Assembly: GCA_963751455.1 (NCBI GenBank)
Contig: CAVVUN010000009.1
Coordinates: 320,001-384,000 of the forward strand
Reading direction: 5' to 3'
DNA: 64,000 nt
From: Nitrospirota bacterium
GTDB taxonomy: Bacteria; Nitrospirota; UBA9217
In this document: piece after piece, positions 35,222 through 58,735 of the stretch
How positions within the stretch are numbered: position 1 is the stretch's first letter
Layout: every line of letters begins with the position of its first letter
The notes under the pieces: generated by a model
Told to the model about the DNA's origin: nothing
The model's database searches: none
What the model saw: only the letters and a program-made list of their open reading frames with translations
Translations under genes and position numbers: made by a program

Positions 35222-35237
35222 GAAGTAAAAAGTAACC

Positions 35238-35337
35238 GGTTTGTCTGGTTTATCTGGTTTGTCTGGTTCAACTAAGCAAACCAAACAAACCAAAGAAACT
35301 AAAAACACCAAAGAAACTAAAGAAACGAAATAAACTA
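35238..35337. repeat. Family A 9-mer inverted repeat tract (rfaE1-rmlA junction)
   Basis: About 4 GGTTTRTCT units then about 7 AAACYAAAN units. Confidence 0.9.
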
Positions 35338-35355
35338 TTTTGACGAGGGTTCACC

Positions 35356-36249
35356 ATGAAAGGTATCATATTGGCAGGAGGCAGCGGTACACGGCTTTAT
35401 CCCATTACCCGGGGGGTATGCAAACAGCTGCTGCCCGTCTACGATAAGCCGATGATTTATTATCCGCTTTCCGTGCTTATGCTGTCCGGTATACGGGATG
35501 TTTTGATTATTTCAACTCCTGTTGATTTGCCTCGCTTTCAGGACATCTTCGGCAATGGAGAGGATTTGGGGCTCCGTTTTTCCTACAAGGAACAGCCGAA
35601 GCCGAACGGGCTTGCAGAAGCGTTCATTATCGGTGAGAACTTCGTCGGCCGGGACCCGGTTTGTCTTGTGCTGGGTGACAATATCTTTTTCGGTCACGGT
35701 CTTACCGGTATGCTCAAAAAGGCCGTAAAAGACGTGGAGAGCTCAGGTGGAGCAAGAGTATTCGGATATTATGTGAAGGACCCGGAGCGATACGGGATTG
35801 TGGAGTTTGATCCGAACGGGAATGTGCTTTCCATTGAGGAAAAACCAAATCAGCCGAGATCGCGATACGCTGTCACAGGCCTGTACTACTACGACAATCA
35901 GGTCGTGGACATAGCAAAGAACATAAAGCCGTCGCACCGTGGTGAATTGGAAATAACCGATGTGAATAATGTTTATCTCGCGCAGAAAAAGATTACGGTC
36001 GAACTGATGGGCCGCGGCTATGCATGGCTCGATACGGGGACCCATGAGAGCCTCCTCGATGCGGGCGAATTCATCGCTACGATAGAACGGCGCCAGGGCC
36101 TCAAGATGGCCTGTATTGAGGAAATCGCCTTTAAGCTGGGATATATCGACAGGGCGAAACTGCTCAAAGCCGCAGATTATCATAAAAAGAATTCCTACGG
36201 AGATTATCTCAAAATGATTGCCGAACATGAGGTGCCGCATGCCCTTTGA
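35356..36249 (+). CDS. rmlA: Glucose-1-phosphate thymidylyltransferase
   Basis: [39 protein letters not shown]. Confidence 0.96.
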
Positions 36250-36799
36250 ATTCACGGCTCTCAAGATCCCCGGGCTCGTGCTGGTAACACCCCGGGTCTT
36301 TGACGACGGCAGGGGGTTTTTTCTTGAATTCTACAAATATTCCGATTTCAGCAAAGCGGGGATAGGGGATCACCTTGTCCAGGACAACTATTCAAAATCT
36401 GTGAAGGGCGTTCTGAGGGGGCTGCACTATCAGAAAAATCCGAAGGCCCAGGGAAAACTGGTTTCGTGTATAAAAGGCAGGATTTACGATGTCGCCGTGG
36501 ACATTCGTAAAGGTTCCCCGCGATATGGCGCATGGCTGGGTGTCGAGCTTTCAGATAAAAATAAGCAAATGCTTTACGTGCCGTCCGGTTTTGCGCATGG
36601 CTTCCAGGTGCTCACCGATTCAGCTGAGATCATCTATAAGTGCACAGCCGAATATTCTCCGGCCGACGACCGCGGCATCATCTGGAATGATCCCGAGCTC
36701 AACATTGCCTGGCCGTTGAAAAATCCGTTATTATCAGCCAAGGATACAGCGCATCCTTTATTGAGAGCTGCCGATAATAACTTCTTATGGAGTGAATAA
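36239..36799 (+). CDS. rmlC: dTDP-4-dehydrorhamnose 3,5-epimerase
   Basis: [31 protein letters not shown]. Confidence 0.95.
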
Positions 36800-36808
36800 A
36801 GCCTGATT

Positions 36809-36880
36809 CGTTTGTTTGGTTTGTTTAGTTTGTTTGGTTAACCAGATAAACTAAATGAACCAGATAAACCAGACAAACTG
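36809..36880. repeat. Family A 9-mer inverted repeat tract (rmlC-rmlD junction)
   Basis: RGTTTGTTT x3-4 then AACCAGAYA x4-5. Confidence 0.9.
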
Positions 36881-36886
36881 AGACCT

Positions 36887-37732
36887 ATGAAATACCTTAT
36901 TACCGGCAGAAACGGCCAACTTGCCCGCGCATTCATCAAAAAATTCGAAGAACAGTCCATTGATTACAGCGCGCCCGACGAGTCGCAGCTCGACATAACC
37001 GATTTTGACGCCGTTTCCCAGGCTGTTTCGGGATTGAAGCCGGACGTGATCATCAACTGCGCGGCATATAATCTGGTGGACAGGGCGGAACTCGAACGGG
37101 AAAAGGCATTTGCGGTCAATGCCTCCGGGCCGGCGAATTTAGCCCGCGCGGCTGCGGATCGAGGAGCACTGCTGGTTCATTTCGGATCAGATTACGTATT
37201 CGACGGAATCAAGGAAAAAGGCCTTTACACTGAAGAAGACGCGGTCAATCCGCTCAATGAGTACGGAAAAAGCAAGCTTTCCGGTGAAAACTTTGTGTCT
37301 GAATCAGGCGCCCGCCATCTTGTACTGAGGCTTAGCTGGGTATTCGGCGACGGCAATCAGAATTTTATCCACAAGTTAATCGAATGGACGCGGAATAATG
37401 AATATCTCAAGATTGCTTGCGACGAATTTTCAGTTCCTACATACACAAATACAGTGGTCGATATGACCTTGAGAGCAATCAAGAATGATACGCGGGGACA
37501 TTACCATCTGACGAACAGCGGTTTTTGTTCTCGGTATGAATGGGCGAGACACATCGTTCAGGACCTCAAATTGAACAAATTCATACGCCCGGTCTCTATG
37601 GATATATTCAATCTGCCTGCAAAACGGCCAAAATTTTCAGCAATGAGCAACGCCGCCCTCTCCAGAGAACTGAACATCTCGATTCCATCCTGGGAAGAGG
37701 CGGTAAGCACGTTTTTACGGGAAAGGGCTTAG
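36887..37732 (+). CDS. rmlD: dTDP-4-dehydrorhamnose reductase
   Basis: TGRNGQL, NCAAY, SDYVFDG, YGKSK, AKRP. Confidence 0.93.
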
Positions 37733-37734
37733 GT

Positions 37735-38877
37735 ATGCACATAAACCAGACGGATAATTCCGGCAGACCGGCGGTGTCGGCCAATATCCTGGTGACAGGC
37801 GGGGCGGGTTTTATCGGCTCTAATTTCATCAGGCACATTATCACGAAACAGGATTTTTGCGGCATTGTCGTCAATCTCGATAAGCTTACGTACGCCGGCA
37901 ACATGATGAATCTTGCCGACATAGAAAACAAATTCGGCGGCAAAAATTATTTTTTTGAACTCGGCGACATCTGCGATTTTGACAAGGTAAGAGCGGTGTT
38001 CGATAAATATCACATCAACATCGTCGTGCATTTTGCCGCTGAAAGCCATGTCGACCGTTCAATCTTCGGACCAAAGGAATTTGTAGAGACAAACGTCAAA
38101 GGCACTTTCTGCATGCTTGAGACTGCGCGGCAAACATGGAGCAACCGCAAGGATGTACGGTTTCACCACATCAGCACCGATGAAGTGTATGGTTCCCTGG
38201 GAAAAACAGGGTTCTTCCTGGAAACAACACCTTACGACCCGCGGAGCCCTTATTCAGCTTCCAAAGCCGCTTCAGACCACCTCGTAAACGCATACTTTCA
38301 TACCTACGGACTGCCGATCACGATTTCCAATTGTTCAAACAACTACGGTCCCTATCACTTTCCGGAGAAGTTGATCCCGCTCACGATCCTGAACGCTGTT
38401 GAGGGGAAACAACTGCCTATATACGGAGACGGCAAAAATGTCCGCGACTGGCTCTATGTCGAGGACCATTGCGAAGCTATCTGGACGATACTTTCCAGAG
38501 GAAAACCGGGCGAAACGTACAACATCGGCGGCGAATGCGAGAAGCGCAATATCGATGTGGTGAACGAGATATGCGCCGTCCTTGAGAAAGTATATCCCGC
38601 GAGCGAAAATCCCGCAATCCGCAATCCGCAATCCGCAATCCGCAATTACACGGATCTGATCACGTTTGTTTCGGATCGACCGGGTCATGACCGTCGTTAC
38701 GCCATTAACTGCGACAAGATCAAGAATGCTCTGGGGTGGAAACAAAATCACGACTTTGAAAAGGGTCTGAAAAATACCGTTGACTGGTTTCTCAAAAACA
38801 CGGACTGGGTAAATAACGTCAGAAGCGGCGAATATAAGAAGTGGCTGGAAAAAAACTATTCAGGCAGGACATCATGA
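37735..38877 (+). CDS. rmlB: dTDP-glucose 4,6-dehydratase
   Basis: [46 protein letters not shown]; ATG start chosen. Confidence 0.95.
38611..38646 (+). repeat. Heptamer tandem repeat (AATCCGC)x4 inside rmlB
   Basis: Four perfect copies at 38616-38643 with degenerate flanks; encodes [11 protein letters not shown]. Confidence 0.9.
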
Positions 38878-38890
38878 GAGCAGGAGAGAT

Positions 38891-40222
38891 ATGAAGATTT
38901 CAGTAATAGGCACGGGCTATGTAGGCCTCGTAACAGGCACATGCCTTGCCGAAAGCGGCAATGACGTAATCTGCATGGACATCGATATAAAAAAGATCGA
39001 GCTGCTGAATAAAGGCGTCGTGCCGATCTATGAACCCGGGCTTGAAGAGCTCATAAAGCGAAACGTCAGTCATGGACGGCTCAGTTTCACGTCGGATATG
39101 GCGTCTTCCGTAAAAAATGCCGATATTATTTTTATTGCAGTAGGGACCCCACCCGGTCAGGACGGTTCCTGTGATCTGAAATACGTCATCGACGCTGCCC
39201 GGCAGGTAGGTACTCACATGAACGGGTATAAGGTCGTTATCAACAAGAGTACGGTACCCGTCGGAACCGGCGACAGGGTACGGGCCGCCCTCTCGTCCAA
39301 AACGAAACATAAATTCGACGTGGTTTCGAATCCCGAGTTCCTCAAGGAAGGGGCCGCGATCGACGACTTCATGAAGCCGGACCGTGTCGTGATCGGTGCT
39401 GATTCCGCGAGAGCTATTGCAGCTATGGAAGAGCTTTACGGCCCCTTTGTCCGGAAGGGGGACCGCATTCTGATTATGGATATCAAAAGCGCGGAAATGA
39501 CAAAATACGCGTCAAATGCCATGCTGGCAACCAAGATATCCTTCATAAACGAGATGGCGGTCATCTGCTCGAGCATGGGAGCGGACATCGACAGCGTCCG
39601 AAAAGGTATGGGCTATGACAGGCGGATCGGGTTCGAGTTCCTGTTCCCGGGTGTTGGCTACGGCGGGTCCTGTTTCCCGAAAGACGTGAAGGCCCTGGTC
39701 CGGACTGCGAAAGAATATGGTGTTGAGGCCAAGGTGCTTAAAGCCGTCGAGGCCGTGAACGACCGCCAGAAAAACGTTCTGTCCGACATGGTGCTCAAGC
39801 ACTTTGCCCCTCGCATTGCAAAGGGAAGAAAGGCGAGTAAACCGCTTGCCGGAATGACTATCGCGGTCTGGGGCCTCTCCTTCAAGCCGCGCACGGATGA
39901 CATGCGGGAGGCGCCGTCAGTCGTGATCATCAATAATCTCCTTCGGGCAGGCGCCAAGGTCAAGGCGCATGACCCGGTCGCCGAACCCGAAGCGCGGAAG
40001 ATATTCAAGAACAGAATAACCATCATGGACGACAGCTATGATGCTCTTCGCAAGGCAGACGCATTGGCTGTAGTGACCGAGTGGAATGAGTTCCGCACGC
40101 CCGATTTTAAGAAAATCAAACAACTGATGAATAAACCCGTGATCTTTGACGGAAGAAATATTTTTAACCAGGAAGAGCTGCTCAAGATGGGATTTACATA
40201 TTACGGGATAGGGAGAAGGTAA
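38891..40222 (+). CDS. ugd: UDP-glucose 6-dehydrogenase
   Basis: GTGYVG, KSTVPVG, NPEFLKEG, GYGGSCFPKD, FKPRTDDMRE. Confidence 0.94.
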   Translation: MKISVIGTGYVGLVTGTCLAESGNDVICMDIDIKKIELLNKGVVPIYEPGLEELIKRNVSHGRLSFTSDMASSVKNADIIFIAVGTPPGQDGSCDLKYVIDAARQVGTHMNGYKVVINKSTVPVGTGDRVRAALSSKTKHKFDVVSNPEFLKEGAAIDDFMKPDRVVIGADSARAIAAMEELYGPFVRKGDRILIMDIKSAEMTKYASNAMLATKISFINEMAVICSSMGADIDSVRKGMGYDRRIGFEFLFPGVGYGGSCFPKDVKALVRTAKEYGVEAKVLKAVEAVNDRQKNVLSDMVLKHFAPRIAKGRKASKPLAGMTIAVWGLSFKPRTDDMREAPSVVIINNLLRAGAKVKAHDPVAEPEARKIFKNRITIMDDSYDALRKADALAVVTEWNEFRTPDFKKIKQLMNKPVIFDGRNIFNQEELLKMGFTYYGIGRR

Positions 40223-40224
40223 GC

Positions 40225-40400
40225 AGTTTATCAGTATGTCTGGTTTGTTTGATTAATTTGGTTTGTCTGGTTTGTCTAGTTTGTTTGGTTTGCCTGGCTC
40301 ATTTGATTCAAAACAAACTAAACAAACCAAAGAAACTAAAGAAACTTTAATCAACAAAACAACCCAAATAAACTAAAGAAACCAAATCAACTAAATCAAC
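40225..40400. repeat. Family A 9-mer inverted repeat tract (ugd-uxs junction), longest two-armed copy
   Basis: About 9 GGTTTGTYT units then about 9 AAACYAAAN units. Confidence 0.9.
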
Positions 40401-40415
40401 TTTTTGGAGTAATTC

Positions 40416-41345
40416 ATGCGGATTCTGGTCACCGGCGGAGCCGGTTTTCTCGGTTCACACTTATGCGAACGATTGTTGGACGCAGGACACGAAGTCCTCT
40501 GTATGGACAATTTTTACACGGGCAGGAAGAAGAACGTTGCGGGAATGTTGAACAATCCGGTTTTCGAACTGGTGCGGCACGATATCGTTCTCCCTGTTCT
40601 TCTCGAAGTGGACAAAATTTACCATCTGGCATGCCCGGCTTCGCCGATTCATTACCAGTACAATCCGGTAAAGACTATCAAGACAAACATTCTGGGTACG
40701 CTCAATATGCTCGGCAACGCAAAACGAGTAAAGGCTCGCATGCTCCTCGCTTCGACTTCGGAGGTGTACGGGGACCCATCCGTTCATCCCCAGAAGGAAA
40801 ATTACTGGGGCAACGTCAATCCGATCGGCATCCGAAGCTGCTATGACGAGGGGAAACGGGTGGCCGAGACCCTGATGATGGACTATCATCGTCAAAACGG
40901 AGTGGACGTCAAGATCGTCCGGATTTTTAACACGTACGGGCCCCGCATGCTGCAGAATGACGGCCGCGTAGTGAGCAACTTCATTGTCCAGGCGCTCAAA
41001 GGCAATGATATTACGGTATATGGTGATGGTTCCCAGACCCGATCCTTCTGCTATGTGGATGATCTGGTCGACGGAATGGTGCGTATGATGGATTGCGAAA
41101 ATTTCATCGGCCCGGTAAATCTCGGGAACCCTGAGGAATATACGATACTCGATTTCGCAAAAAAAATCATAGCAATGACCGGTTCAGGATCCAAAATCGT
41201 GCACAAGCCGCTTCCCTCTGACGATCCGACCCAGCGCCAGCCCGATATCTCCCTGGCCGGATCAAAGTTGAACTGGAAGCCGAAGGTGAGCGTGGATGAC
41301 GGCTTGAAGAGGACGATTGAATATTTCAGGAAAGAACTGTCATGA
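40416..41345 (+). CDS. UDP-glucuronic acid decarboxylase (UDP-xylose synthase)
   Basis: [41 protein letters not shown]. Confidence 0.92.
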
Positions 41346-41463
41346 TCGTCCATCGGCTACGGCAACGAGGCCCGTATCGTTAAGCGTTAAGCGGATACGG
41401 ACTGCCCAACACGAACGCCGTAACCCAACCACGAAACGGGCATCGTAACCGTGACCTTTTAAC
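41345..41463. repeat. Family B hairpin element, solo copy (uxs-kdsB junction)
   Basis: GGCTACGGCAACGAGGCCCGTATCGT ... ACGAAACGGGCATCGTAACCGTGACC imperfect inverted arms; homologous to the 51213 array unit. Confidence 0.85.
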
Positions 41464-41473
41464 TACTATTCAA

Positions 41474-42289
41474 ATGAACCGAAGCAACCAGATGAACCAG
41501 ACAAACATGACAAACCATAAAAACCAGACAATCATCGCCGTCATTCCTTCCCGCTACGGGTCAACCCGGTTCCCCGGCAAAGCACTCGCAATGATTGAGA
41601 AAAAACCGATGATCCAGTGGGTTTACGAGCGCACAAAGCGTTCTCGCCTCATTACGCGGGTAATCGTGGCCACGGATGATGAACGCATCCGTAAGGCGGT
41701 TTCCGCTTTTGGAGGAGAAGCAATGATGACGTCGGCCGGCCATGCAACCGGTACGGATAGAATCGCCGAAGTGGTCCGTAAGCTTGATTGCGATATTGTT
41801 GTAAATGTTCAGGGAGATGAACCGCTGATCCATCCGGAGATGATCGACGAAGCTGTGACTCCTCTTGTGGACGACCCCTCCATTCCCATGGGCACTGTTT
41901 GCAGAAAGATTGAACGCCGTGATGAAGCTTTTGACGCTAATGTCGTCAAGGTGGTCTTCGATCGAAACGGGTTTGCGTTGTATTTTTCGCGGGCTCCGAT
42001 CCCGTGGGATCGAGACAGCCGAACAGGGAAAATATGTTTAACTGATATGCCTCTTGCAGGCGATATGTATAAGCATATCGGCCTCTATGCGTATCAGAGA
42101 GATTTTCTTTTACAGTACGCGCGGATGCCGCAAACAGGGCTTGAAGCCGTTGAAAAGCTCGAACAGCTGCGGGCGCTCGAATCCGGACATCGCATTAAAG
42201 TGGTTGTAACGAGCCATGAATCCTTTGGTGTTGACATCCCGGACGATTTGAGTAAAATACTGCAACGCCTCAAAGAAAGAAGAGATTAG
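41474..42289 (+). CDS. kdsB: 3-deoxy-manno-octulosonate cytidylyltransferase
   Basis: [27 protein letters not shown]; N-terminus ([11 protein letters not shown]) is encoded by family A 9-mers, so the exact start is uncertain. Confidence 0.95.
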
Positions 42290-42291
42290 GA

Positions 42292-43941
42292 ATGGAAAAG
42301 AAAAAACCTCCGACAAAGTACATTTTCGTGACGGGCGGAGTCGTTTCATCGCTCGGCAAGGGGCTTGCGGCGGCGTCCATAGGCGCTCTGCTCGAGAGCA
42401 GGGGGGTAAAGGTTACCTTTCTCAAGCTTGATCCTTACATAAATGTCGACCCCGGCACCATGAGTCCGTTTCAGCACGGAGAGGTTTATGTAACAGATGA
42501 CGGCGCCGAGACCGACCTCGATCTCGGACATTACGAACGGTATACGAACGTCACGACCGGTCAGAAGAACAACTTTACTTCCGGCAGGATATATAACAAC
42601 GTAATCAGCAAGGAACGAAGAGGGGACTATCTGGGTGGAACGGTTCAGGTGGTACCGCACGTTACGGATGAAATCAAGCGCGCGATTACGGACCTCGCCG
42701 ACGATGAGGAGGTCGTGATCGTCGAGATCGGCGGGACCATCGGCGACATAGAAAGTCTTCCGTTTTTGGAAGCCATCAGGCAATTGAGATATAATCTCGG
42801 CCGGCAAAATGTCCTGTATGTCCATCTTACGCTGGTGCCGTTTATAAAAGCTGCGGATGAGCTTAAGACTAAACCAACCCAGCACAGCGTCAAGGAACTG
42901 CTGTCCATAGGGATCCAGCCGAACATTCTGGTTTGCCGGAGCGAACGGCCCATACCGAAGGAGATGAAACGGAAGATTGCGCTCTACTGCAATGTTGAAG
43001 AGAATGCCGTTATCACCGCACTGGACGTCGATACCATATACGAGGTACCGATCCACCTGCATGAGGAAGGGATCGATGACAGGATAGTCGAGTTGCTCAA
43101 TCTTACCGTATCGGACCACAACCTGAACGCATGGGAAACGATCGTCCAGCGCGTCAAGCACCCGTCAAAGAACGTTACTATAGCCCTTGTCGGGAAATAC
43201 GTTGATCTCAAAGAAGCATATAAAAGCCTGTGTGAAGCATTGACCCACGGCGGCATAGCGAACGAAGCCCGTGTCGCAATCAACTGGGTGGATTCTGAAG
43301 ACATCGAGAGCAGGGGCGCTGAAGAAATGCTGAAAGGCGCCGATGGTATTCTCGTACCGGGCGGGTTCGGAATACGCGGCGTGGAAGGTAAAATCGCGGC
43401 CGTTAAATACGCCCGGGAAAGAAAGATACCGTATTTCGGGATCTGTCTCGGAATGCAATGTGCGGTGATCGAAGCAGCCCGCAATCTTGCGGACATCAAG
43501 GATGCGAACAGTTCCGAATTTGATCAGCAGACTCCCAATCCCGTCATTTACCTGATCGAGCAGTGGTTCGATTACCGGACCCAGTCGGTTCAAAAACGCG
43601 ACACAAGCTGCGATAAAGGCGGGAGCATGCGCCTCGGTTCCTATCCATGCAACATAGAAAAGGGCACTAACGCTTATCGGGCATACGGGAAAAATGCTAT
43701 TACCGAACGGCATCGCCACCGCTACGAGTTCAATAACCGTTACACGGAAACATTAAAAAAGGCCGGACTCGTTATCAGCGGTATTTCTCCGGACGGCGAA
43801 CTGGTAGAGATCGTGGAATACAAGGAACATCCCTGGTTTCTCGGCTGTCAGTTCCATCCGGAATTCAAATCGAGACCGCGCAATCCTCATCCCTTGTTCA
43901 CGGCGTTCATCGATGCGGCGCTGAAGAATAAGAGAAAATAG
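42292..43941 (+). CDS. pyrG: CTP synthase
   Basis: [34 protein letters not shown]. Confidence 0.97.
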
Positions 43942-44063
43942 TTTGTTTAGTTAGTTTGGTTTTTTTAGTTTCTTTGGTTTGTTTAGTTTCTTTTCGTTTC
44001 TTTGGTTTGTTTAGTTTCTCTAGCTTAAGGATAACGAAATAAACCAAACAAACAAGACAAACC
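43940..44063. repeat. Family A 9-mer inverted repeat tract (pyrG-kdsA junction)
   Basis: About 9 RGTTTSTTT units then about 4 AAACCAAAC-like units. Confidence 0.9.
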
Positions 44064-44083
44064 GTTTTTTAAAGGCAATTAAT

Positions 44084-44908
44084 TTGACAAAGGAAATTCG
44101 CTTAAAAAATATCACGATCGGCGGCAATAATCCGCTCGTCTTGATCGCCGGGCCTTGCGTGATAGAATCCGAAGGAGCTGCGCTTGAAGCAGCAGCCAGG
44201 CTCAAGCGGATAACGGACGAGCTCGGCATACCGTTTATCTTCAAGTCATCCTTCGACAAGGCAAACCGCAGTTCCTTGAAGTCCTATCGCGGCCCGGGCA
44301 TGACCGAAGGCCTGAGGATACTTGCGCGCGTTGGAAGGGAATTGGACGTGCCGCTCCTGTCCGATGTCCACCGTTTCGAAGAGATAGGACCGTCATCCGA
44401 GGTTCTTGATATCCTCCAGATCCCGGCATTTTTATGCCGGCAGACTGATTTCGTTATGGATGTGGCGAAGACGGGCCGGATAGTCAATATCAAGAAAGGG
44501 CAGTTTCTTTCCCCGTGGGACATAAAAAATGCAGCTGAAAAAGCAGCGTCAACAGGCAACGATAAGATCATCATCACCGAACGCGGAGTTTCATTCGGGT
44601 ATAATAACCTCATCGCCGACATGCGCTCGCTGCCTATAATACGCGACGCGGGTTATCCCGTGGTATTCGACGCTACTCATTCGGTTCAGTTGCCCGGCGC
44701 AGCCGGAACGGCTTCGTCCGGTGACCGGAAATTCGTACCCTACCTCACCAGAGCGGCAACGGCCGCCGGCATTGATGCGTTGTTCATGGAAGTGCATGCC
44801 TGTCCGGACAAGGCGCTCTGCGACGGGCCGAACATGCTCGCACTGGACCAGCTTCCTGGACTCCTTAAGCAGGTGCGGGAAATAGACAGGATTGTAAAAT
44901 CACTCTAG
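44084..44908 (+). CDS. kdsA: KDO-8-phosphate synthase
   Basis: AGPCVIES, KSSFDKANRSS, QIPAFLCRQTD, FDATHSVQ. Confidence 0.96.
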   Translation: MTKEIRLKNITIGGNNPLVLIAGPCVIESEGAALEAAARLKRITDELGIPFIFKSSFDKANRSSLKSYRGPGMTEGLRILARVGRELDVPLLSDVHRFEEIGPSSEVLDILQIPAFLCRQTDFVMDVAKTGRIVNIKKGQFLSPWDIKNAAEKAASTGNDKIIITERGVSFGYNNLIADMRSLPIIRDAGYPVVFDATHSVQLPGAAGTASSGDRKFVPYLTRAATAAGIDALFMEVHACPDKALCDGPNMLALDQLPGLLKQVREIDRIVKSL

Positions 44909-44915
44909 TTCAGAG

Positions 44916-44994
44916 AGTTTGTTTAGTTTTTTTGGTTTCTTTGGTTTAGAACCAGATAAGCCAAATAAACCAGACAAACGACATAAACCAAAAC
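44916..44994. repeat. Family A 9-mer inverted repeat tract (kdsA-kdsD junction)
   Basis: About 4 T-rich units then about 5 A-rich units abutting the kdsD ATG. Confidence 0.9.
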
Positions 44995-45966
44995 ATGACA
45001 ATAGAACAGGCAAAAAAAGTTCTCCGGATTGAAGCGGATGCAGTCGCTGCGCTTATTGACCGGGTCGATTACCGGTTTGAATTGGCCGTAAAGATGATTC
45101 TGAACTGCAACGGCCGGGTCGTGGTGACGGGCATGGGCAAGTCGGGCCTGATAGGCAAAAAGATAGCGGCGACTCTGGCGTCCACGGGCACGCCCGCGCT
45201 CTTTCTCCATCCTGCAGAGGGAATCCACGGAGACCTTGGTATGGTTACGAGGGGAGATACCGTGATTGCCCTTTCGAACAGCGGCGAGACCGAGGAGATT
45301 GCGAGGATGTTGCCTTCCCTCAAGCGGCTGGGCATAAAAATCATTTGTTTTACCGGCAATACCGAATCAACTCTTTCAAAAAACAGCGACGTCGTAATAG
45401 ACGTCGGAGTTAAGGAGGAAGCCTGCCCGCTGGGGCTGGCGCCGACTGCGAGTACTACGGCTACCCTGGCGATGGGAGACGCATTGGCTGTGGCGCTTCT
45501 TGCACAGAGAGGTTTCAAGGAAGAAGATTTTGCCTGCTTTCATCCGGGCGGCACTCTCGGAAAAAAACTGCTTCTCAGGGTACGGGACCTTATGCATATA
45601 GGTGACGAGATTCCTGTTGTTTCGGAAGGGACTCTGATCAAAGACGCAATCTACGAAATATCTTCAAAAAAAATGGGGATCACCGCGGTATTGGACGGAA
45701 CAGGAAGCCTTGTCGGCGTCATCTCCGATGGAGATCTCCGTCGGTGGATGGAGAAGACGGAAAAGAGCGGCGAGAATCTTCTGACCAAAAAGGCAAAGGA
45801 CATCATGACCACAAAGCCGAAAGTCGCCAACAAGGACTCCCTGGCGGCAGAAGCTGTTGCAATCATGGAAAATAATTCTATCACGTGCCTTATTGTATCC
45901 GACGGCAGCGCCAAACCGGAAGGGGTCATCCATTTGCATGATCTTCTGAAGGCGGGAGTGGTTTGA
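44995..45966 (+). CDS. kdsD: Arabinose-5-phosphate isomerase (KpsF/GutQ family)
   Basis: TGMGKSG, HGDLG, SNSGET, APTAST, HPGG, two CBS domains. Confidence 0.95.
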   Translation: MTIEQAKKVLRIEADAVAALIDRVDYRFELAVKMILNCNGRVVVTGMGKSGLIGKKIAATLASTGTPALFLHPAEGIHGDLGMVTRGDTVIALSNSGETEEIARMLPSLKRLGIKIICFTGNTESTLSKNSDVVIDVGVKEEACPLGLAPTASTTATLAMGDALAVALLAQRGFKEEDFACFHPGGTLGKKLLLRVRDLMHIGDEIPVVSEGTLIKDAIYEISSKKMGITAVLDGTGSLVGVISDGDLRRWMEKTEKSGENLLTKKAKDIMTTKPKVANKDSLAAEAVAIMENNSITCLIVSDGSAKPEGVIHLHDLLKAGVV

Positions 45967-45968
45967 TA

Positions 45969-46024
45969 TGGAGCGAGCCGACCGCGTCGGCGTAAAAATA
46001 CGGCAACACGGTTGCCTTGGTCCA
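45969..46024. repeat. Inverted pair of 25-bp REP-like hairpins left of the RAYT gene
   Basis: TGGAGCGA-GCCGAC-CGC-GTCGGC-GT (45969-45993) facing the reverse complement of TGGACCAA-GGCAAC-CGT-GTTGCC-GT (46000-46024). Confidence 0.75.
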
Positions 46025-46035
46025 AAATATAATGT

Positions 46036-46578
46036 ATGGAAAAATATAAGACGTACGCTCATACGCTGCCTCATTTATATCGTGCTAATGCTAAATATTT
46101 TATAACTGCATCAACATACGAAAAAAAGAAGATTTTTGACAATGCTGCCAAAGAGAAATAGTTATCTTGTCTACTCAAAGCCTGTTTGAACCAGGGATGG
46201 GAGCTTGAAGATTGGGTCATTCTTGATAATCATTACCATATAATGGTAAACGGACCTGGCAATGAAATATTTCTTTCGAAGTTTATCGCTGAATACCATA
46301 AATTTACGGCTTTGTTTATGAAGAAAAATTATGCCGAGCTGGCAAAACTGCCAAAGGTTTTTAACAATTATTGGGATACGTGTATTACGTATGAAAGATC
46401 ATATTTTGCCAGGTTGAATTATCTATACAATAATCCTGTTAAACATGGATATGTACGGAAGGCACATGATTATGAATGGGGCAGTTTCTTTATCAGATAT
46501 AACGAAGATGAACTTTCTATAGATAAGCTGCTGAATCAGTTTCCTTGTGATACGGTTAACATAGAAGACGATTTTTAA
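46036..46578 (+). pseudogene. REP-associated tyrosine (Y1 HUH) transposase with in-frame TAG at 46159
   Basis: ATG 46036 frame reads PHLY..YFITASTY, stop, then WVILDNHYH (HUH) and YLYNNPVKHG..YEWGS; low GC. Confidence 0.85.
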
Positions 46579-46580
46579 TA

Positions 46581-46605
46581 ACGGCAACATGGTTGCCTTG
46601 GTCCA
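46581..46605. repeat. REP-like hairpin right of the RAYT gene
   Basis: ACGGCAACATGGTTGCCTTGGTCCA, 24/25 identical direct repeat of 46000-46024. Confidence 0.85.
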
Positions 46606-46610
46606 TAAAA

Positions 46611-47129
46611 ATGAAAAAATCAACCCAGAGCCTTCGAACGAAGGCGAAACAAATAAAACTTATCCTGCTTGACGTCGACGGAGTGATGACGGACGGAAGC
46701 ATCATTCTCGACAACCAGGGTAATGAAATGAAGGCGTTTCACGTGCGGGACGGCCGGGGCGTTAAACTGGCTCAAAAAGCCGGCATACTGTTCGGGATTA
46801 TTACCGGCAGATCGTCGGAAGTCGTAAACGTTCGTGCCCGCGAACTGGGCATAACCGACGTCTTTCAAGGCGCGCAGGACAAAATTACGGCATATGAGTC
46901 ACTGCTTGCGAAGTATAAACTTCGCGACGCAGAAGTGGCCTATATAGGGGATGACGACATCGACGTGTCTATCTTCAAAAGAGTGGGACTTGCCGCCACG
47001 GTAGCCGACGCGGACCCCTCCGTTAAGCCGCATGTGGACATGGTAACAAAGGCAGCCGGCGGCAGAGGCGCGGTGCGTGAAGTGATAAACCTTGTCCTCG
47101 AAAGTCAGCGTAAATTGCGGGCGTCATGA
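46611..47129 (+). CDS. kdsC: KDO-8-phosphate phosphatase
   Basis: LDVDGVMTDG, FHVRDG, ITGR, YIGDD, GGRGAVRE; ATG start chosen. Confidence 0.93.
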   Translation: MKKSTQSLRTKAKQIKLILLDVDGVMTDGSIILDNQGNEMKAFHVRDGRGVKLAQKAGILFGIITGRSSEVVNVRARELGITDVFQGAQDKITAYESLLAKYKLRDAEVAYIGDDDIDVSIFKRVGLAATVADADPSVKPHVDMVTKAAGGRGAVREVINLVLESQRKLRAS

Positions 47130-48025
47130 ACAGGTGGGCGGTTAAAACCAGGAAAAAGCTGAACAGGGTCTCTGTTCTCTGGTCTGCCAGGCTCGTCTTG
47201 ATGTTGTCGAAATTGCTGCCGTACCGTCTGGGAGTAAGAGCAGGCGGTTGTCTGGGCTGGGTCGGATACTACCTGATCCATCGTGAAAGAACAAGGGCGC
47301 TCATACACCTCCGGTCAGCATTCCCGGACAAGAGTGAAGCCTGGATACGCCGTACAGCGCGCCGCTGCTTCATGCATCTCGGGAAATCCGTTCTCGAAAT
47401 GACGCTCATGTCTCCGGTCCGGCTTGCGAAGGCATCCACGCTGGAGGGCGCCGAAAATCTTGAACGGGCATTCAGCCGGGGAAAGGGCGTCATTTACTTT
47501 ACCGGGCACGTCGGAAACTGGGAATTGTCGGGCGGCGTGCTCGCATCAAGATATCCTTTGAGCGTCGTAGCTGCTCCTCTTGATCCCGAGCCGTTAAATG
47601 ACCTGATCTTAAAACTTCGGAGCAGGATCGGGATCAGGGTCATCCTTCGGGGCAGGCCCGGGGCATCCCGGGAGCTGATACGCGTTTTCAGGGAGAACAG
47701 GATCCTCGGGCTGCTCATCGACCAGGACACGGATGTTGACGGAACGTTCGTTGATTTCATGGGAAGGCCTGCCTGGACGCCGACTGCGGCCGCCTCAATG
47801 GCGATAAAATTCGATGCGCCGGTGGTTTTCGGCTACGCCCAACGCGGCAAAGATAACAATCATACGATAACGATAGAAGGGCCGCTCGAACTGGTCCGGA
47901 CCGGCAATGACGAGCAGGATATAATCACCAACACGGCGCTGTTCACAAAAAAAATAGAAAACTCTATCATGCGGAACCCCGAGCAATGGGTGTGGATGCA
48001 CCGGCGGTGGAGGAGAATGCCTTGA
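47126..48025 (+). CDS. Lipid A late acyltransferase (LpxL/HtrB family)
   Basis: GHVGNWE, LIDQD, PEQWVWMHRRW. Confidence 0.9.
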   Translation: MNRWAVKTRKKLNRVSVLWSARLVLMLSKLLPYRLGVRAGGCLGWVGYYLIHRERTRALIHLRSAFPDKSEAWIRRTARRCFMHLGKSVLEMTLMSPVRLAKASTLEGAENLERAFSRGKGVIYFTGHVGNWELSGGVLASRYPLSVVAAPLDPEPLNDLILKLRSRIGIRVILRGRPGASRELIRVFRENRILGLLIDQDTDVDGTFVDFMGRPAWTPTAAASMAIKFDAPVVFGYAQRGKDNNHTITIEGPLELVRTGNDEQDIITNTALFTKKIENSIMRNPEQWVWMHRRWRRMP

Positions 48026-48576
48026 AAATATTTAACGTACCGAATCTTTTGTCGATCAGCAGAATACTGTCCGTGCCGATATTTATCTCGCTGATGCTCG
48101 AGCCGAATCCCGTACGGGCGCTTCTTGCAGGAATTGTTTTTTCTCTGGCCTCCGCAACGGACTGGCTGGACGGATACCTGGCGCGAAAATGGGGGCAGGT
48201 CACCAAGATCGGCAAGCTGCTGGACCCGATCGCGGACAAAATCCTGATCATGTCCGCTTTGGTCATCCTCGTTGAAATCCGGTCCGATGTGGTCCATGCC
48301 TGGATAGCGATCATTATCATCGGCAGGGAATTTGCGGTCACCGGCCTCCGTGCGATCGCATCGAGCGAGGGAATCATAATCCCTGCTGAGACTGTAGGCA
48401 AATACAAGGTGGGAGCGCAGATTACCGCGGTGCTTTCGCTTCTTCTCGATTATTATCTGGATAAAGGCTGGGTAACGGACGTCGGAAGGGTCGCCCTCTG
48501 GGTGGCGATGATTCTTGCCGTTTACTCCGCCGTCCAGTATTTCAGATCGTACTGGAGTAAGTTAAATAACCGGTGA
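48022..48576 (+). CDS. pgsA: CDP-diacylglycerol--glycerol-3-phosphate 3-phosphatidyltransferase
   Basis: NVPNLLSISR, TDWLDGYLARK...GKLLDPIADK; TTG start after AGGAG. Confidence 0.93.
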   Translation: MKIFNVPNLLSISRILSVPIFISLMLEPNPVRALLAGIVFSLASATDWLDGYLARKWGQVTKIGKLLDPIADKILIMSALVILVEIRSDVVHAWIAIIIIGREFAVTGLRAIASSEGIIIPAETVGKYKVGAQITAVLSLLLDYYLDKGWVTDVGRVALWVAMILAVYSAVQYFRSYWSKLNNR

Positions 48577-48594
48577 TTTGCGAACCATAGAACT

Positions 48595-48712
48595 TGTTTA
48601 TTTAGTTTGTCTTGTTTGTCGGGTTTATCTGGTTTGAAACCAAAGAAACTAAACAAACCAAATGAACTAAACAAACCCAACAAACCAAACAAACGAAACA
48701 AACCAAATGAAC
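48595..48712. repeat. Family A 9-mer inverted repeat tract (pgsA-plsY junction)
   Basis: About 5 T-rich units then about 8 AAACCAAAC units, the last supplying the plsY ATG. Confidence 0.9.
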
Positions 48713-49306
48713 TTCTTCTATCAACCCCTTGCCGTCATCATTTCCTATCTTATCGGAAGCACTCCGTTCGGTGTCATTTTCACGAGATTCTTTTCGGATA
48801 TCGACGTCAGGACCGTGGGAAGCGGCAATATCGGAGCAACGAATGTCCTGCGGGCCGCAGGGAAAAAGGCGGCCATACTTACTTTACTCTCTGACTGTCT
48901 GAAAGGTGTGATTCCGGTTCTTGTGGTCAAGACCCTTTTACAGGATGATTGGACAACGGTTGCCTCTGGGGCGGCCGCTGTTTTGGGTCATAATTTCCCC
49001 ATTTATCTCAAGTTTAAAGGAGGGAAGGGCGTGGCAACAAGCTACGGAGTAGTCCTTGCCATAGTTCCCAAAATAGGCGTTATCTGTCTGGTCGCATGGC
49101 TGGCTGCCGCTCTTGTCTGGCGTTATTCGTCCCTGTCCGCGCTTGCTTCCTTCGCGCTCTTTCCGCTACTGACCTTCATCACTTTCCCTGAATCCAAGCC
49201 GCTCGGTCTTCTATCTCTCTTCGTATTCGGCATGATCTATTACCGGCACCGGGAAAACATCAAGCGACTTATCGCAGGGACGGAGCCGAAGATAGGAAAG
49301 AAATAA
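48707..49306 (+). CDS. plsY: Glycerol-3-phosphate acyltransferase
   Basis: GSGNIGATNVLR, GHNFP..FKGGKGVAT, HRENIKRL..GTE. Confidence 0.95.
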   Translation: MNFFYQPLAVIISYLIGSTPFGVIFTRFFSDIDVRTVGSGNIGATNVLRAAGKKAAILTLLSDCLKGVIPVLVVKTLLQDDWTTVASGAAAVLGHNFPIYLKFKGGKGVATSYGVVLAIVPKIGVICLVAWLAAALVWRYSSLSALASFALFPLLTFITFPESKPLGLLSLFVFGMIYYRHRENIKRLIAGTEPKIGKK

Positions 49307-49315
49307 CGGTTTATA

Positions 49316-49450
49316 ATCGCCATTTCGGTCCGACGGTAACGAAGCCCGTATCGTGGAACGTCAGACGGTAACGTAAAAGACCTCATATACGACAACCGTA
49401 ACCAAAAACCAAAAGGGGCATCGTAACCCTAACCTTTTAAACCCGGCATA
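49316..49450. repeat. Family B hairpin element, solo copy upstream of four-helix-bundle gene 1
   Basis: GGTAACGAAGCCCGTATCGTGGAA ... ACGACAACCGTAACCAAAAACCAAAAGGGGCATCGTAACC..CTTTTAAACC matches the array unit. Confidence 0.85.
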
Positions 49451-49767: not shown

Positions 49768-51098
49768 CAGTAGTGTCCGGTTATCGTTTTTTTAATGTGC
49801 GATAACTCGCTGTCATTCAAAGATAAAAGAGACTGTATGCAACTTTTCGATTTGAACTTAATTTATCCAGAATCATCCTATAATCCACCTCATCTATGCA
49901 TGAGGAGGGACGAAGATGAATTCCGGAAAGACGGTTTTTGCTCAGCTGATCCAGCATCTACCACGGTACGAGTTCAACCAATGCGTCCTTCGTTATCACG
50001 GCAATCACAAAGTCAGAAGCTTTTCATGCATGGATCAGTTTCTCTGCATGGCATTTGCCCAGCTGACCTATCGCGAAAGCTTGCGCGATATTGTAACGTG
50101 TCTCAACTCCCATCGACCAAAGCTTTACCACATGGGCTTTCGAGGGAAGGTCGCCAAATCCACGTTGGCGGACGCCAACGAGCTTCGAGACTTCCGCATC
50201 TATCAGGACTTCGGCTATTTGCTCATCGACATCGCCAGCAAACTTTATCGGAACGAGGAGTTTGGCCTCGACCTGAAGCTCTCGGTCTTTGCGCTGGACT
50301 CAACGATCATCGATCTTTGCCTTTCCACGTTCCCTTGGGCGACGTTTCGGAAAAAGAAAGCAGCCGTCAAGATTCACACTTTGCTCAACGTGCAGGGATC
50401 GATTCCAACCTTTATTTTCGTGACTCCCGGCAGCGTTCACGATGTCAATATGATGGATACTGTCCCGTTCGAAGCCGAATCGGTCTATACAATGGATCGC
50501 GCTTACCTCGACTTCGAGCGACTTTACCAAATCGATCAACTGTCCGCGTTCTTCGTTATCAAGAGCAAAAGCAATACCCGGCTTCGTCGCGTCTACTCTG
50601 CTCCCGTGGACAAAGCCGACGGGGTGCAAGCCGATCAGACGGTTATGCTCATTGGCTACAAATCCCGCAAGGCTTATCCAGATCCATTTCGTCGGGTGCG
50701 CTATTACGACACCGAACGAAACAAACGCTTGGTGGTTCTTACGAACAATTTCCTTATCCCGGCCAAAACAGTCGCGGATATTTATCGCTCGCGTTGGCAG
50801 GTAGAGCTGTTCTTCAAGTGGATCAAGCAACACTTGCGGATCAAGTCGTTCTTCGGGACATCTCCGAATGCGGTCAAGATCCAAATCTGGATTGCCGTAA
50901 GCGTTTATCTCCTCGTGGCGATTGTCAAGAAGAGATTGAATCTGCCCGGCAGCCTCCACACAATTCTACAGATTTTGGAGGTCAACCTTTTTGAGAAAAT
51001 ACCGATTTCTCAACTGGTTGAAGACACTATCAATCACGAAAACGAATATCGCGACGATAACCAATTGAATCTATTTACGTAACAACCGGACACTACTG
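49768..51098 (+). mobile_element. IS4-family insertion sequence, 1331 bp
   Basis: 15-bp perfect terminal inverted repeats CAGTAGTGTCCGGTT; 9-bp target duplication ATAAAAAAC at 49759-49767 and 51099-51107. Confidence 0.95.
49916..51082 (+). CDS. IS4-family DDE transposase (DUF4372-type N-terminus)
   Basis: MAFAQLTYRESLRDI, DSTIIDL, MDRAY, YRSRWQVELFFKWIKQHL (YREK). Confidence 0.95.
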   Translation: MNSGKTVFAQLIQHLPRYEFNQCVLRYHGNHKVRSFSCMDQFLCMAFAQLTYRESLRDIVTCLNSHRPKLYHMGFRGKVAKSTLADANELRDFRIYQDFGYLLIDIASKLYRNEEFGLDLKLSVFALDSTIIDLCLSTFPWATFRKKKAAVKIHTLLNVQGSIPTFIFVTPGSVHDVNMMDTVPFEAESVYTMDRAYLDFERLYQIDQLSAFFVIKSKSNTRLRRVYSAPVDKADGVQADQTVMLIGYKSRKAYPDPFRRVRYYDTERNKRLVVLTNNFLIPAKTVADIYRSRWQVELFFKWIKQHLRIKSFFGTSPNAVKIQIWIAVSVYLLVAIVKKRLNLPGSLHTILQILEVNLFEKIPISQLVEDTINHENEYRDDNQLNLFT

Positions 51099-51212
51099 AT
51101 AAAAAACATATAATAGGCTTCCCAATCGATGAAACGATAGATCTCTACGACAAGGCAGGCAGACAAATATATAATCTTGCCAAAGCGTGGTCGCAGTTTA
51201 AGCGCGAAACCA

Positions 51213-52060: not shown

Positions 52061-52293
52061 TTTGGTGATATCGAAGAACAGCATGGTTACTCTTGAAGAC
52101 GCAAAAGACGTTTCAAAACACAAATCTTATCTTAAGATTATCTGACCTGCTTTTACCAGTCGCTAAGAACTATGAACCCGAACTTCTGGGAAGGGTTGCC
52201 CTGCAATTCGGCAAACCGGACCGACCGGCCAAACGGGGCAGATTCGATAGATTATCCTTGCTAAAAGGATAATACTATGATAAATTGTCCGCC

Positions 52294-55244: not shown

Positions 55245-55429
55245 ACTCAGAACAAGGCTAAGAACTGAAATTTACAATTTGCATTCGGCCGCGGCCAACG
55301 GCCGCGATATTATATATAACACCGGCAACTTGATTGACAAATTATCTTGAATTTTTCGTTTTAGTTTTTAGGTTGACTTTGTTACAAGTAATACGTATAT
55401 TACTGGTAATACCATTTCGGAGGTAAGAA

Positions 55430-55675: not shown

Positions 55676-55677
55676 AC

Positions 55678-56433: not shown

Positions 56434-56543
56434 AAACTGGACGAAATAGTGAGGACAGGTGTTCGAAAATTTACTCTTTCGTAGTTTACTTTAGCGTCCT
56501 TTTGTCGTATATTAATCGCAACTTTCTGAAGCTATGTTCATTC

Positions 56544-56640
56544 CAAACCAAACAAACCAGAGAAACCAAATTAACCAAACAAACTCTTACGGTTTCCAAA
56601 CCAAACAAACCAAATAAACCAAACAAACCGGATAAGCCGG
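56544..56640. repeat. Family A 9-mers, A-rich arm only, upstream of four-helix-bundle gene 2
   Basis: About 10 AAACCARAN units in two blocks. Confidence 0.9.
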
Positions 56641-56647
56641 AACTGAT

Positions 56648-57076
56648 ATGAAAATAACCCGATTTGAAGAGATGGAATGCTGGAAAGAGTCAAGAAAATT
56701 AGTAGACATGATATACAAAGCCATTCAGTCAAATAAATCATTTCAGTCAGATTATCGGTTAAAAGATCAGAGTATCGGCGCTGCTGTATCAGTAATGGGA
56801 AACATCCCGGAGGGATTTGTACGACGTTCGAATAAAGAATTTATACAGTTTCTATTTATCTCGATGTCCTCTGCCGCCGAATTACAGTCTCACCTGTATG
56901 TCGCACTTGATCAGCACTATATCTCTCAGGACACCTTCTCAACAATCTATCAACAAGCTGTGAAAACATCCAAAATAGTATCCGGCCTCATTACATATTT
57001 ACGTAACAATGTCAGCGGTTCCAAACGGATTTCTAATAAACCAAACAAACCAGACAAACTAAATAAACCGGAATAA
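56648..57076 (+). CDS. Four-helix-bundle protein (TIGR02436/23S-IVP/Avd-like), intact
   Basis: RFEEMECWK, DYRLKDQ..AAVSVMGNIPEGF.R.SNKEFIQFL...S.AE..S.LYVALDQ.YI; C-terminal tail NKPNKPDKLNKPE encoded by 9-mers. Confidence 0.92.
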   Translation: MKITRFEEMECWKESRKLVDMIYKAIQSNKSFQSDYRLKDQSIGAAVSVMGNIPEGFVRRSNKEFIQFLFISMSSAAELQSHLYVALDQHYISQDTFSTIYQQAVKTSKIVSGLITYLRNNVSGSKRISNKPNKPDKLNKPE

Positions 57077-57202
57077 CCAAAATATCAAACAAACAAAACA
57101 AACCAAATAATCCAGAGCAACCAAACAAACCAAATAAACCAGAGAAACTAGATGAACCAAACAAACCAGAAAAACGAAACAAACCAAACAAACCAGAAAA
57201 AC
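57037..57202. repeat. Family A 9-mers, A-rich arm only, spanning four-helix-bundle 3' end, spacer and wzi 5' end
   Basis: About 17 AAACCARAN units. Confidence 0.9.
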
Positions 57203-58735
57203 ATTTTTATTAACTTATTCGCCATACTAACCGTCCTATGCTTCTCAACAACCATCCACGCCTCAACATATATAGCCATTGAGGATACTATCGTTTACGA
57301 CCTCCTGAACAAGCTCGAAGCCGAAAGCGTTATCCAATCCGGTCTTCTCAATACCAAACCGATCAGCAGAAAGGAAGCGTTTCGGCTCCTTCAAGAAGCA
57401 GAAGCGAATTCCGAATCCCGCAGCGAATTTATAAAAAACTTGATCCGGACACTTAAGGATAGGCTGGGACCGGATCCATCAAGTGGAACGCAATTAAAAC
57501 CGATTGATTCAATCTATGCAAAATATATCCATACCAATGCGGAAGTTCATACACTGAAATATGGCGAGTCCATTCAAAATCAACAACCGTTTAACTACAA
57601 CAACAACGGAGATCTCTATCAGCGCGGATCAAATGAGAGGATCGGTTTTACGTCGCGGTTGGAAAACTGGGGACCGCTTTCGCTAGAAGTAAACCCGGAA
57701 TTCCGCTATCCCGACACGCCCTTTACCAATCAAGACCTGGTCACCAGGAAGGCCTATGCAGTCCTGGACCTCGGATGGGACGTTGTCCTCGGACAAGACT
57801 CCCAATGGTGGGGTCCCGGATACCATGGCGCTTTGCTGCTATCGAACAACGCCGAACCCTTTACCATGCTCAAGATATCAAATCCCAGCCCTGTCCGCCT
57901 TCCCTGGATTTTCGACAGCCTAGGCCCATTCGGGTTCACGTTCTTTGTTACAAACCTGGAGAAAGCGAGAAAAATTCCGGAACCGTATTTATACGGCATG
58001 AGGTTCGACTTTAAACCGCATCCCAACGTTGAAATCGGTCTGCAGAAGACCGCGTTTCTCGGTGGACGAGCAGGCCGTCCCGAAAATGCCAAGATATGGC
58101 TGCAGAGTTTGTATGGTGCGAATGATGCTGATAACTGCTACGCCGGAGAGGGCTGCTATAAAAAGGAGCCCGGTGACCAGCGGGCGGGGATCGACTTCAA
58201 GCTTACTGTTCCTTGGAATGTTCAGCCGATGCAAATCTATCTTGAAGCCGACGGAGAAGACGAATACCACAATCTGCCGAACCTCTGGGCGTTTATCGGA
58301 GGAATCTACCTGCCCAGGATATTAAATGAAGAGCGTCTCGATTTCAGGATGGAATACACAACTACGCGGGGCAGAAAGAGGAACCCTTATATCTGGTATC
58401 TTCATCACCTCTATTCAGGCTATACTTACAATGGGAACATTATCGGCCATCATGTAGGCACCGACGCTAATGACTTTTTCAGCGAGGTTTCGTATTTAAT
58501 GCAAGAGAGAACCGGTAAAATTTCCCTGTCATATCATAGGGAAGAGCACGACATTTACATCCCGGGAAGCCACGAAAGATTGGAGGATATTACTGCAGGA
58601 ATTATTTTGTCTTTAATGAAACAGATCGATTTAGTAACCCGTTATAGCCGGGGATGGCTGAAAAACAAGGGTAATGCACCAGGTGATACAGTCAATCTCT
58701 TGAAATTCGGGATCGGAATAGAGTATCGATTTTAA
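57152..58735 (+). CDS. wzi: Capsule assembly Wzi family outer-membrane protein
   Basis: QWWGPGYHGALLLSNNAEP, GMRFDFKP, GDQRAG.D, IGHHVG.D, terminal F; repeat-derived N-terminus precedes the signal peptide. Confidence 0.85.
   Translation: MNQTNQKNETNQTNQKNIFINLFAILTVLCFSTTIHASTYIAIEDTIVYDLLNKLEAESVIQSGLLNTKPISRKEAFRLLQEAEANSESRSEFIKNLIRTLKDRLGPDPSSGTQLKPIDSIYAKYIHTNAEVHTLKYGESIQNQQPFNYNNNGDLYQRGSNERIGFTSRLENWGPLSLEVNPEFRYPDTPFTNQDLVTRKAYAVLDLGWDVVLGQDSQWWGPGYHGALLLSNNAEPFTMLKISNPSPVRLPWIFDSLGPFGFTFFVTNLEKARKIPEPYLYGMRFDFKPHPNVEIGLQKTAFLGGRAGRPENAKIWLQSLYGANDADNCYAGEGCYKKEPGDQRAGIDFKLTVPWNVQPMQIYLEADGEDEYHNLPNLWAFIGGIYLPRILNEERLDFRMEYTTTRGRKRNPYIWYLHHLYSGYTYNGNIIGHHVGTDANDFFSEVSYLMQERTGKISLSYHREEHDIYIPGSHERLEDITAGIILSLMKQIDLVTRYSRGWLKNKGNAPGDTVNLLKFGIGIEYRF

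Follow-up and report, generated by a model that had tools for sequence, protein, structure and literature searches.

A 64,000-nucleotide stretch of a Nitrospirota bacterium genome (GTDB lineage UBA9217; GenBank assembly GCA_963751455.1, contig CAVVUN010000009.1, positions 320,001 to 384,000), referred to here as the window, carries a cell-envelope operon with genes of the lipopolysaccharide (LPS) pathway. Six of its gene junctions are occupied by two-armed arrays of a degenerate 9-mer repeat (family A), each consisting of a T-rich arm (T-arm) followed by an A-rich arm (A-arm). The same 9-mer also flanks a gene at position 56648 for a four-helix-bundle protein of the family PF05635/TIGR02436. 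From the sequence alone the arrays had been read as sliding RNA hairpins that set gene stoichiometry (the original prediction); this reading and the relation of the arrays to the 56648 gene were followed up by computational analysis.

Family-A arrays and the four-helix-bundle gene

All six arrays were found, by direct reading of the sequence, at the junctions named in the original prediction (Table 1), and their spacing was as described there, the T-arm starting 0-17 nt past the upstream stop (the pyrG stop falls within the T-arm) and the A-arm ending 0-20 nt ahead of the downstream start or, at plsY, supplying it. The absence of a Shine-Dalgarno sequence claimed for kdsD and plsY was reproduced by a 4-base test, which was also negative for rmlD and kdsA and positive for rmlA and uxs; genome-wide, such a 4-mer was present at 1163 of 3169 crude starts, i.e. 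most crude starts are without one.

Table 1. Positions of the family-A arrays and arms and of the four-helix-bundle gene in the window
Feature	Position	Strand	Remarks
Gene-less two-armed array, rfaE-rmlA junction	35235..35339	.	about 3 T-arm and about 6 A-arm units; fold z -2.2
Gene-less two-armed array, rmlC-rmlD junction	36806..36882	.	4+4 units; predicted 30-bp stem; z -8.4
Gene-less two-armed array, ugd-uxs junction	40239..40395	.	6+8 units; z -2.6
Single A-arm, kdsB 5' end	41475..41528	+	in frame after upstream ATG
Gene-less two-armed array, pyrG-kdsA junction	43937..44066	.	9+3 units; pyrG stop supplied by T-arm
Gene-less two-armed array, kdsA-kdsD junction	44913..44992	.	4+5 units; z -6.0
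Gene-less two-armed array, pgsA-plsY junction	48592..48716	.	4+8 units; plsY ATG supplied by A-arm
A-arm directly 5' of four-helix-bundle gene	56535..56641	+	no T-arm detected; no predicted fold, z -0.7
Four-helix-bundle gene (PF05635/TIGR02436), 142 aa	56648..57076	+	final residues encoded by repeat
A-arm 3' of four-helix-bundle gene	57028..57206	+	extends into first codons of Wzi-family open reading frame (ORF) at 57152

The 5.7-Mb genome that contains the window (G000) was searched with a period-9 profile learned from the arms of the six junctions. At a score of at least 20, 48 arms were detected at 29 sites, versus 1, 1 and 0 in three shuffled genomes. Nineteen of the 29 sites showed the order T-then-A and none the order A-then-T, the rest being single-armed; a covariance model added a weaker second arm at two of the ten single-armed sites. 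The resulting 21 two-armed sites are a lower bound, as the covariance model scored 72 of the 573 candidates. Their arms had a median size of 4 units. Seven of the 21 were located within 35 kb of the 56648 gene (0.26 expected; the test is post hoc). Other sites adjoined unrelated genes (lon-lipA, murD-ftsW, DAHP synthase-prephenate dehydrogenase and an efflux pair), one lay between convergent genes with no start codon adjoining, and the target genes shared no common pathway. Among the single A-arms, those at 41474-41528 (kdsB) and 57152-57206 (the Wzi-family ORF) are in frame after an ATG and would add Asn/Gln/Thr-rich N-terminal extensions, and three similar ones in near-identical context (G000:C15:1377474, 1385679 and 1397314) lie in very long ORFs.

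The 56648 protein scored above the curated cut-offs of both PF05635 (96.7 bits versus 33.8) and TIGR02436 (94.9 versus 24), and its sequence matched the structure 2GSC, which contains five chains (E 6e-11). A single-sequence structure model was all helical (pLDDT 63); its best fold matches were 2GSC and 2RLD (E 1e-3 to 6e-2), and its match to Avd was weak (E 0.1-0.3). Homologs of the gene were collected from genomes of many phyla (80 loci, of which 77 were scored and 3 with short flanks were left out) and, using the core protein only, from metagenomes (80 rows, of which 18 short and 4 duplicate ones were dropped); the earlier search for genome homologs had contained one repeat-encoded peptide pattern. 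Ranked by closeness, the genome homologs had family-A arms in 16 of the first 20, 4 of the following 20 and 3 of the remaining 37; the flanks of the distant homologs mostly carried 7- or 8-mers. A T-arm and an A-arm enclosed the gene (T|A) at 10 of the 77 loci. Of the 58 distinct metagenome homologs, 57 had an arm; the downstream arm was always an A-arm, and the upstream side carried an A-arm in 35 cases, a T-A pair in 9, a T-arm in 7 and none in 6. The far-flank control of this set was high (23/132), arms being present also 330-600 nt from the gene, and it is thus weak as a control. The T-A-gene-A form was found in the relative G006 as well. The gene of the 56648 clade is thus usually placed between direct arms and seldom looped inside a stem, and the suggested link of the 56648 protein to the arrays holds, in that the 9-mer of the junction arrays also flanks the gene and its close metagenome homologs. 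The closest homolog of the 56648 protein (L203, G076:C10:326922; 81% over residues 1-74) is split in two frames and has T|A arms; it sits downstream of a Wzi-family gene, and the window copy upstream of one.

Gene and hairpins were then compared within single genomes. Among genomes chosen for the arms of their gene, the hairpin model matched in 7 of the 10 with 9-mer arms (3/5 and 4/5, one match being weak) and in none of the 5 with 7-mer arms. In G000 and five further genomes, the repeat dialect of the gene-less hairpins agreed with that of the arms of the resident gene. Adenine occupied unit position 7 (A7 dialect) in 22/23 units of the gene flanks and 132/146 units of the dispersed hairpins of G000, and, as a looser match, in 17/18 and 21/33 of those of G077. 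Cytosine occupied this position (C7 dialect) in 8/10 and 66/72 units of G086, 11/13 and 38/43 of G082, and 6/7 and 8/8 of G083, respectively. Guanine at position 3 (G3 dialect) was found in 12/15 flank and 24/29 hairpin units of G080, versus 2/146 hairpin units of G000. Since the search model derived from A7 units, it was biased against C7 matches; one double-counted G077 hairpin and one gene-adjoining G080 hairpin were removed from these totals, two G077 loci and the G085 locus had no T-then-A pair, and L052 and L203, which are one stretch, were counted once and kept out of the trees as a split match.

On a tree of 87 proteins (3 of 90 rows with mixed dialects were not counted), the A7/C7 dialect changed once, versus about 22 changes for shuffled labels. 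Residue 74 was Lys in all 25 C7 proteins and hydrophobic in all 62 A7 proteins, and position 59 was Ser with the C7 dialect and hydrophobic with A7. This covariation of residues and dialect is a single event; it is neither independent evidence nor proof of causation. Within the repeat unit, position 7 was fixed while positions 1, 6 and 8 varied freely (19 G000 sites), which suggests a constraint tied to the protein.

Arm order, pairing and orthologous junctions

The common polarity of the arrays on the coding strand had been offered as an argument against neutral slippage. A layout of T-arm then A-arm is self-reverse-complementary and therefore looks the same from either strand: the covariance model matched 20 of the 21 two-armed sites on both strands, and the layout occurred at 12 sites in operons of the plus strand, at 7 in operons of the minus strand and also between convergent genes, the operon strand of some sites resting on longest-ORF calls. 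A genome-wide count of polarity relative to transcription, as had been proposed, is by this symmetry impossible to read on two-armed copies, and only the fixed arm order is real. A motif-free scan of the genome gave 323 arrays of period 7-11 versus 2 in shuffles, and five further two-armed repeat families each showed a single arm order (28/28, 40/40, 10/10, 7/7 and 54/54). The real signal is thus the fixed order of the arms, which holds for the whole kind of repeat. Because in three of these five families the arm richer in A clearly comes first, at the end remote from the start codon, the A-rich arm at the start codon is a trait of family A and no design rule.

All six junctions folded better than dinucleotide shuffles (-26.7 to -42.3 kcal/mol, z from -2.2 to -8.4), in agreement with the prediction that the arms can pair. 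Pairing in several 9-nt registers was seen in part, three junctions being mixed and a single register carrying 80-89% of the pairing at the other three. G-U pairs, which had been supposed to take part, were not favoured on the coding strand, where mismatches between the arms comprised 42 G-U and 53 A-C (p=0.30, 19 sites); the exception was rmlC-rmlD, where G-U mismatches favoured the coding strand 7:0. Of the two strands, the coding one gave the more stable fold at 5 of 18 sites, and several sites were close to a tie. Across the three unit positions that vary, arms matched their own partner in 91 of 207 cases (44%), versus 49% +/- 3% for swapped arms (21 sites). With G-U bias, coding-strand stability and arm co-variation all negative, the hairpins show no tuning for pairing in mRNA. 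The start codon of plsY was paired in the fold with downstream sequence and free in the fold without it, and local side effects on translation are therefore possible at this gene. Between 33000 and 59000 of the window, Rfam gave no match at the gathering score; a terminator and promoter scan gave nothing specific to the six arrays, with 22 terminator-like sites versus 20 expected and one weak prediction within a T-arm.

Orthologous junctions were compared in genomes of the same family. Each search contributed its 30 best loci, among them 21 relatives in the case of kdsA and 29 for every other gene. Of 152 junctions, 2 carried the repeat (rfaE-rmlA 0/27, rmlC-rmlD 0/29, ugd-uxs 0/29, pyrG-kdsA 0/21, kdsA-kdsD 0/20 and pgsA-plsY 2/26). 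Both positive loci (L175 and L177) belong to one other genus and carry a family-A hairpin whose unit sequence differs from that of the window; in a third genome from this genus, the spacer at this junction is unrelated. Over whole genomes, the covariance model matched in 5 of 60 relatives with one site each, versus 21 sites in G000. Given the scarcity of the repeat at these junctions and in these relatives, the six arrays are likely lineage-specific and recent insertions. Adjacent genes overlap by 4 nt in most of the relatives at rmlC-rmlD (21/29), pyrG-kdsA (16/21) and kdsA-kdsD (16/20); the inserts part such genes, and translation of the LPS pathway may change as a side effect. Some of the same gaps are filled elsewhere by other repeat hairpins.

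Origin of the arrays

On balance, the six arrays appear to represent the ends of a selfish cassette that lacks a transposase, present as recently inserted copies without the gene; the protein of this cassette likely reads the repeat that flanks its gene. This reading is supported by the repeat shared with the gene and its matching dialect, the fixed arm order, the absence from most relatives, the clustering near the gene and the lack of tuning in mRNA. For the underlying mechanism, the 56648 protein would form an Avd-like pentamer, as the five chains of 2GSC and the likeness to Avd suggest, and each of its subunits may bind roughly one repeat unit in single-stranded RNA or DNA, in keeping with the median of 4 units per arm. 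A T-then-A pair would present one A-arm on either strand. The arms would be the ends of the element and the gene-less pairs its non-autonomous copies; these probably originate when a T-A-gene-A copy undergoes deletion between its two direct A-arms, or through direct copying. Arrays would persist at stop-start junctions because inserts are tolerated there, the more so when an arm contributes the stop or start codon itself. The cassette contains no candidate enzyme for cutting or copying, and host functions (recombination or a reverse transcriptase) would take over this step.

Several observations weigh against such a cassette. A gene-bearing copy was found in none of the 152 orthologous comparisons, so the route from a full cassette through gene loss was not caught there. 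The clustering near the 56648 gene was noticed post hoc, in a window chosen for the cluster. The longest exact stretch common to pairs of sites was short (median 14, maximum 27 nt; 19 sites, 171 pairs); the sites are thus no copies of one another, a finding as compatible with mobility as with old age, rapid turnover or growth in place. No clear target-site duplication was seen by eye, with possible 4-8 nt echoes at two junctions and relatives too distant for comparison. The link of gene and hairpin is not strict, in that 3 of 10 gene-bearing genomes gave no model match and one further match was weak, G051 and G019 (77% and 86% complete) had a hairpin and no gene match at E 1e-20, and G075 had a hairpin and only a 43% gene match. 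Finally, dialect and matching residues changed once, which leaves one independent pair, and shared inheritance could explain the tree.

The arrays are unlikely to be evolved RNA switches of the kind put forward in the original prediction, whose alternative registers, perhaps with the 56648 protein opening them, would mask or unmask A-rich starts or create sites for cleavage and thereby set gene stoichiometry. That all six junctions fold, that four of the six downstream starts are without a Shine-Dalgarno 4-mer, that the pairing state of the plsY ATG differs between folds, that rmlC-rmlD has its 7:0 G-U bias and that the upstream A-arm of the 56648 gene ends near its ATG, like an operator, would all suit this explanation, as would the translational role proposed for heptamer repeats before start codons (MacGregor 2015, PMC4679880). 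It is contradicted by the lack of strand bias over 18-19 sites and of arm co-variation, by the absence of the repeat at 150 of the 152 orthologous junctions, by the unrelated genes at other sites, one of them between convergent genes without a start, and by the reversed order of A-rich and T-rich arms in other families. It is likewise doubtful that the arrays are an mRNA version of the 23S rRNA intervening sequence, in which the arms pair, the cargo is looped out, RNase III cuts and gene-less hairpins are collapsed remnants. The protein family is the same, T|A arms enclose the gene in 7/58 metagenome homologs and at 10/77 genome loci, and in Coxiella RNase III cuts the intervening sequence at its terminal stem of 28 bp (PMC4990558); but the gene lies mostly between direct A-arms (35/58), including the window copy with its non-folding upstream arm, and the arms are not tuned for pairing.

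Mobility could be dispensed with if the gene came by transfer and its binding arrays then expanded on the spot through mutation and slippage, under selection as a small regulon of the resident protein. The dialect match, the sites not being copies of one another and the slightly greater likeness of adjacent units than of shuffled ones (48% versus 44%, p=0.058) agree with this, but two inverted arms in fixed order would have to arise 21 times, often where genes overlapped, at target genes without a common pathway and clustered near the gene; such growth is regarded as quite improbable. Neutral slippage with template switching in A+T-rich spacers would account for the arm lengths that vary between sites and for the variable spacers at two junctions in some relatives. 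Template switching would, however, make the arms match each other, which they do not; both arm orders would be expected and one occurs; and the tie to one protein clade would be left unexplained. On these three grounds neutral slippage is largely refuted and is now very improbable, and the original prediction was right to set it aside.

Known systems, neighbouring elements and meaning

REP/REPIN repeats with RAYT transposases and miniature inverted-repeat transposable elements (MITEs) are gene-less intergenic inverted repeats that are matched to a resident gene and expand in single lineages. The gene-less hairpins of family A resemble these non-autonomous repeats in being inverted repeats between genes, in matching a resident gene and in having expanded in a single lineage. 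Unlike REP/REPIN-RAYT, the partner gene belongs to PF05635 and is no HUH or DDE transposase, and a RAYT-like fragment at 46186 in the window has a different flanking repeat; unlike MITEs, the copies are mosaics of units and, as their short shared stretches show, not near-identical.

Intervening sequences of 23S rRNA that bear an ORF for S23p occur in Coxiella and Leptospira (PMC4990558). The element studied here has in common with them the protein family, a sporadic, horizontally spread distribution and, for the smaller part of the homologs, a gene enclosed by inverted arms (T|A). It differs from them in lying between protein-coding genes and outside any rRNA gene (with no Rfam match in the part of the window scanned), in having arms made of degenerate 9-mer tandem arrays and many gene-less copies, and in having no near-perfect terminal inverted repeats round the window gene, which has direct A-arms (A|A in 35/58 homologs, T|A in 7/58). 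The TAACTGA heptamer repeats of Beggiatoaceae (MacGregor 2015, PMC4679880) are like family A in forming short tandem arrays, patchily distributed, that end just before starts often without a Shine-Dalgarno sequence, and unlike it in that family A is a degenerate, two-armed 9-mer tied to a specific protein clade. A repeat-binding protein has been raised as a possible mobile element of these heptamers, and the main text of that paper contains no mention of "helix bundle" or "intervening" (PMC4679880). PF05635 has been linked to Avd of the diversity-generating retroelements (PMC10053308), a structural relative and an RNA-binding pentamer in which all five protomers touch one RNA element via the same residues, by which they grip its bases (10.1101/2023.10.23.563531). 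Unlike such a retroelement, the 56648 gene has no reverse transcriptase beside it, none of the six RVT_1 matches of the genome being near, and no template or variable repeat was seen there, although these repeats were not searched for.

Other repeats and mobile elements surround the arrays. A second, shortened four-helix-bundle gene (PF05635; 49473-49805), flanked by a different repeat family, is followed by an IS4 transposase (49916-51082) and by six near-identical tandem copies of a unit of about 100 bp (51208-51843), to which pieces 5' of the second gene (49379-49443), at the uxs-kdsB junction (41408-41450) and at two other sites of the genome are related. The RAYT-like transposase fragment (46186-46578), which scores below the family cut-off, lies between two short direct repeats (45967-46605); a similar repeat, without the gene, occupies the kdsA-kdsD junction in the relative L018, and tandem copies of it stand at ugd-uxs in L157. 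A heptamer tandem array lies within the rmlB coding sequence (38607-38650), and two tandem AAA_14/DUF4143 ATPase genes with an AbrB-PIN toxin-antitoxin-like pair (52285-56091) precede the 56648 gene. The whole genome contains at least five more two-armed repeat families of fixed order, 9 TIGR02436 matches and 10 GxxExxY (TIGR04256) matches, and two other four-helix-bundle genes carry repeat arms of their own.

The match of dialects within a genome, the negative tests of RNA tuning and the dominance of direct arms in the 9-mer clade are new here. The class itself was not found in the published literature searched, in which subscription journals were mostly uncovered and supplements excluded. 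As a tentative generalization, PF05635 proteins may be ring-shaped, sequence-specific readers of tandem repeats of 7-10 bases with a clade-specific code, which would drive transposase-free mobile elements that seed gene-less hairpins into operon junctions, above all in the neighbourhood of their own gene. The three natural dialects of one repeat (A7, C7 and G3), each matched to a protein subclade and found again at distant sites within one genome, open a direct comparison of binding, and together with residues 59 and 74 they offer a handle on the repeat code. If the cassette moves without a transposase, it would represent a route of DNA spread outside the systems compared above. The reading joins two unexplained things, a widespread protein family of unknown function and the short tandem repeats between bacterial genes; if the generalization is true, it would account for what the PF05635 "intervening-sequence proteins" do and for a large part of the short tandem repeats in bacterial intergenic DNA.

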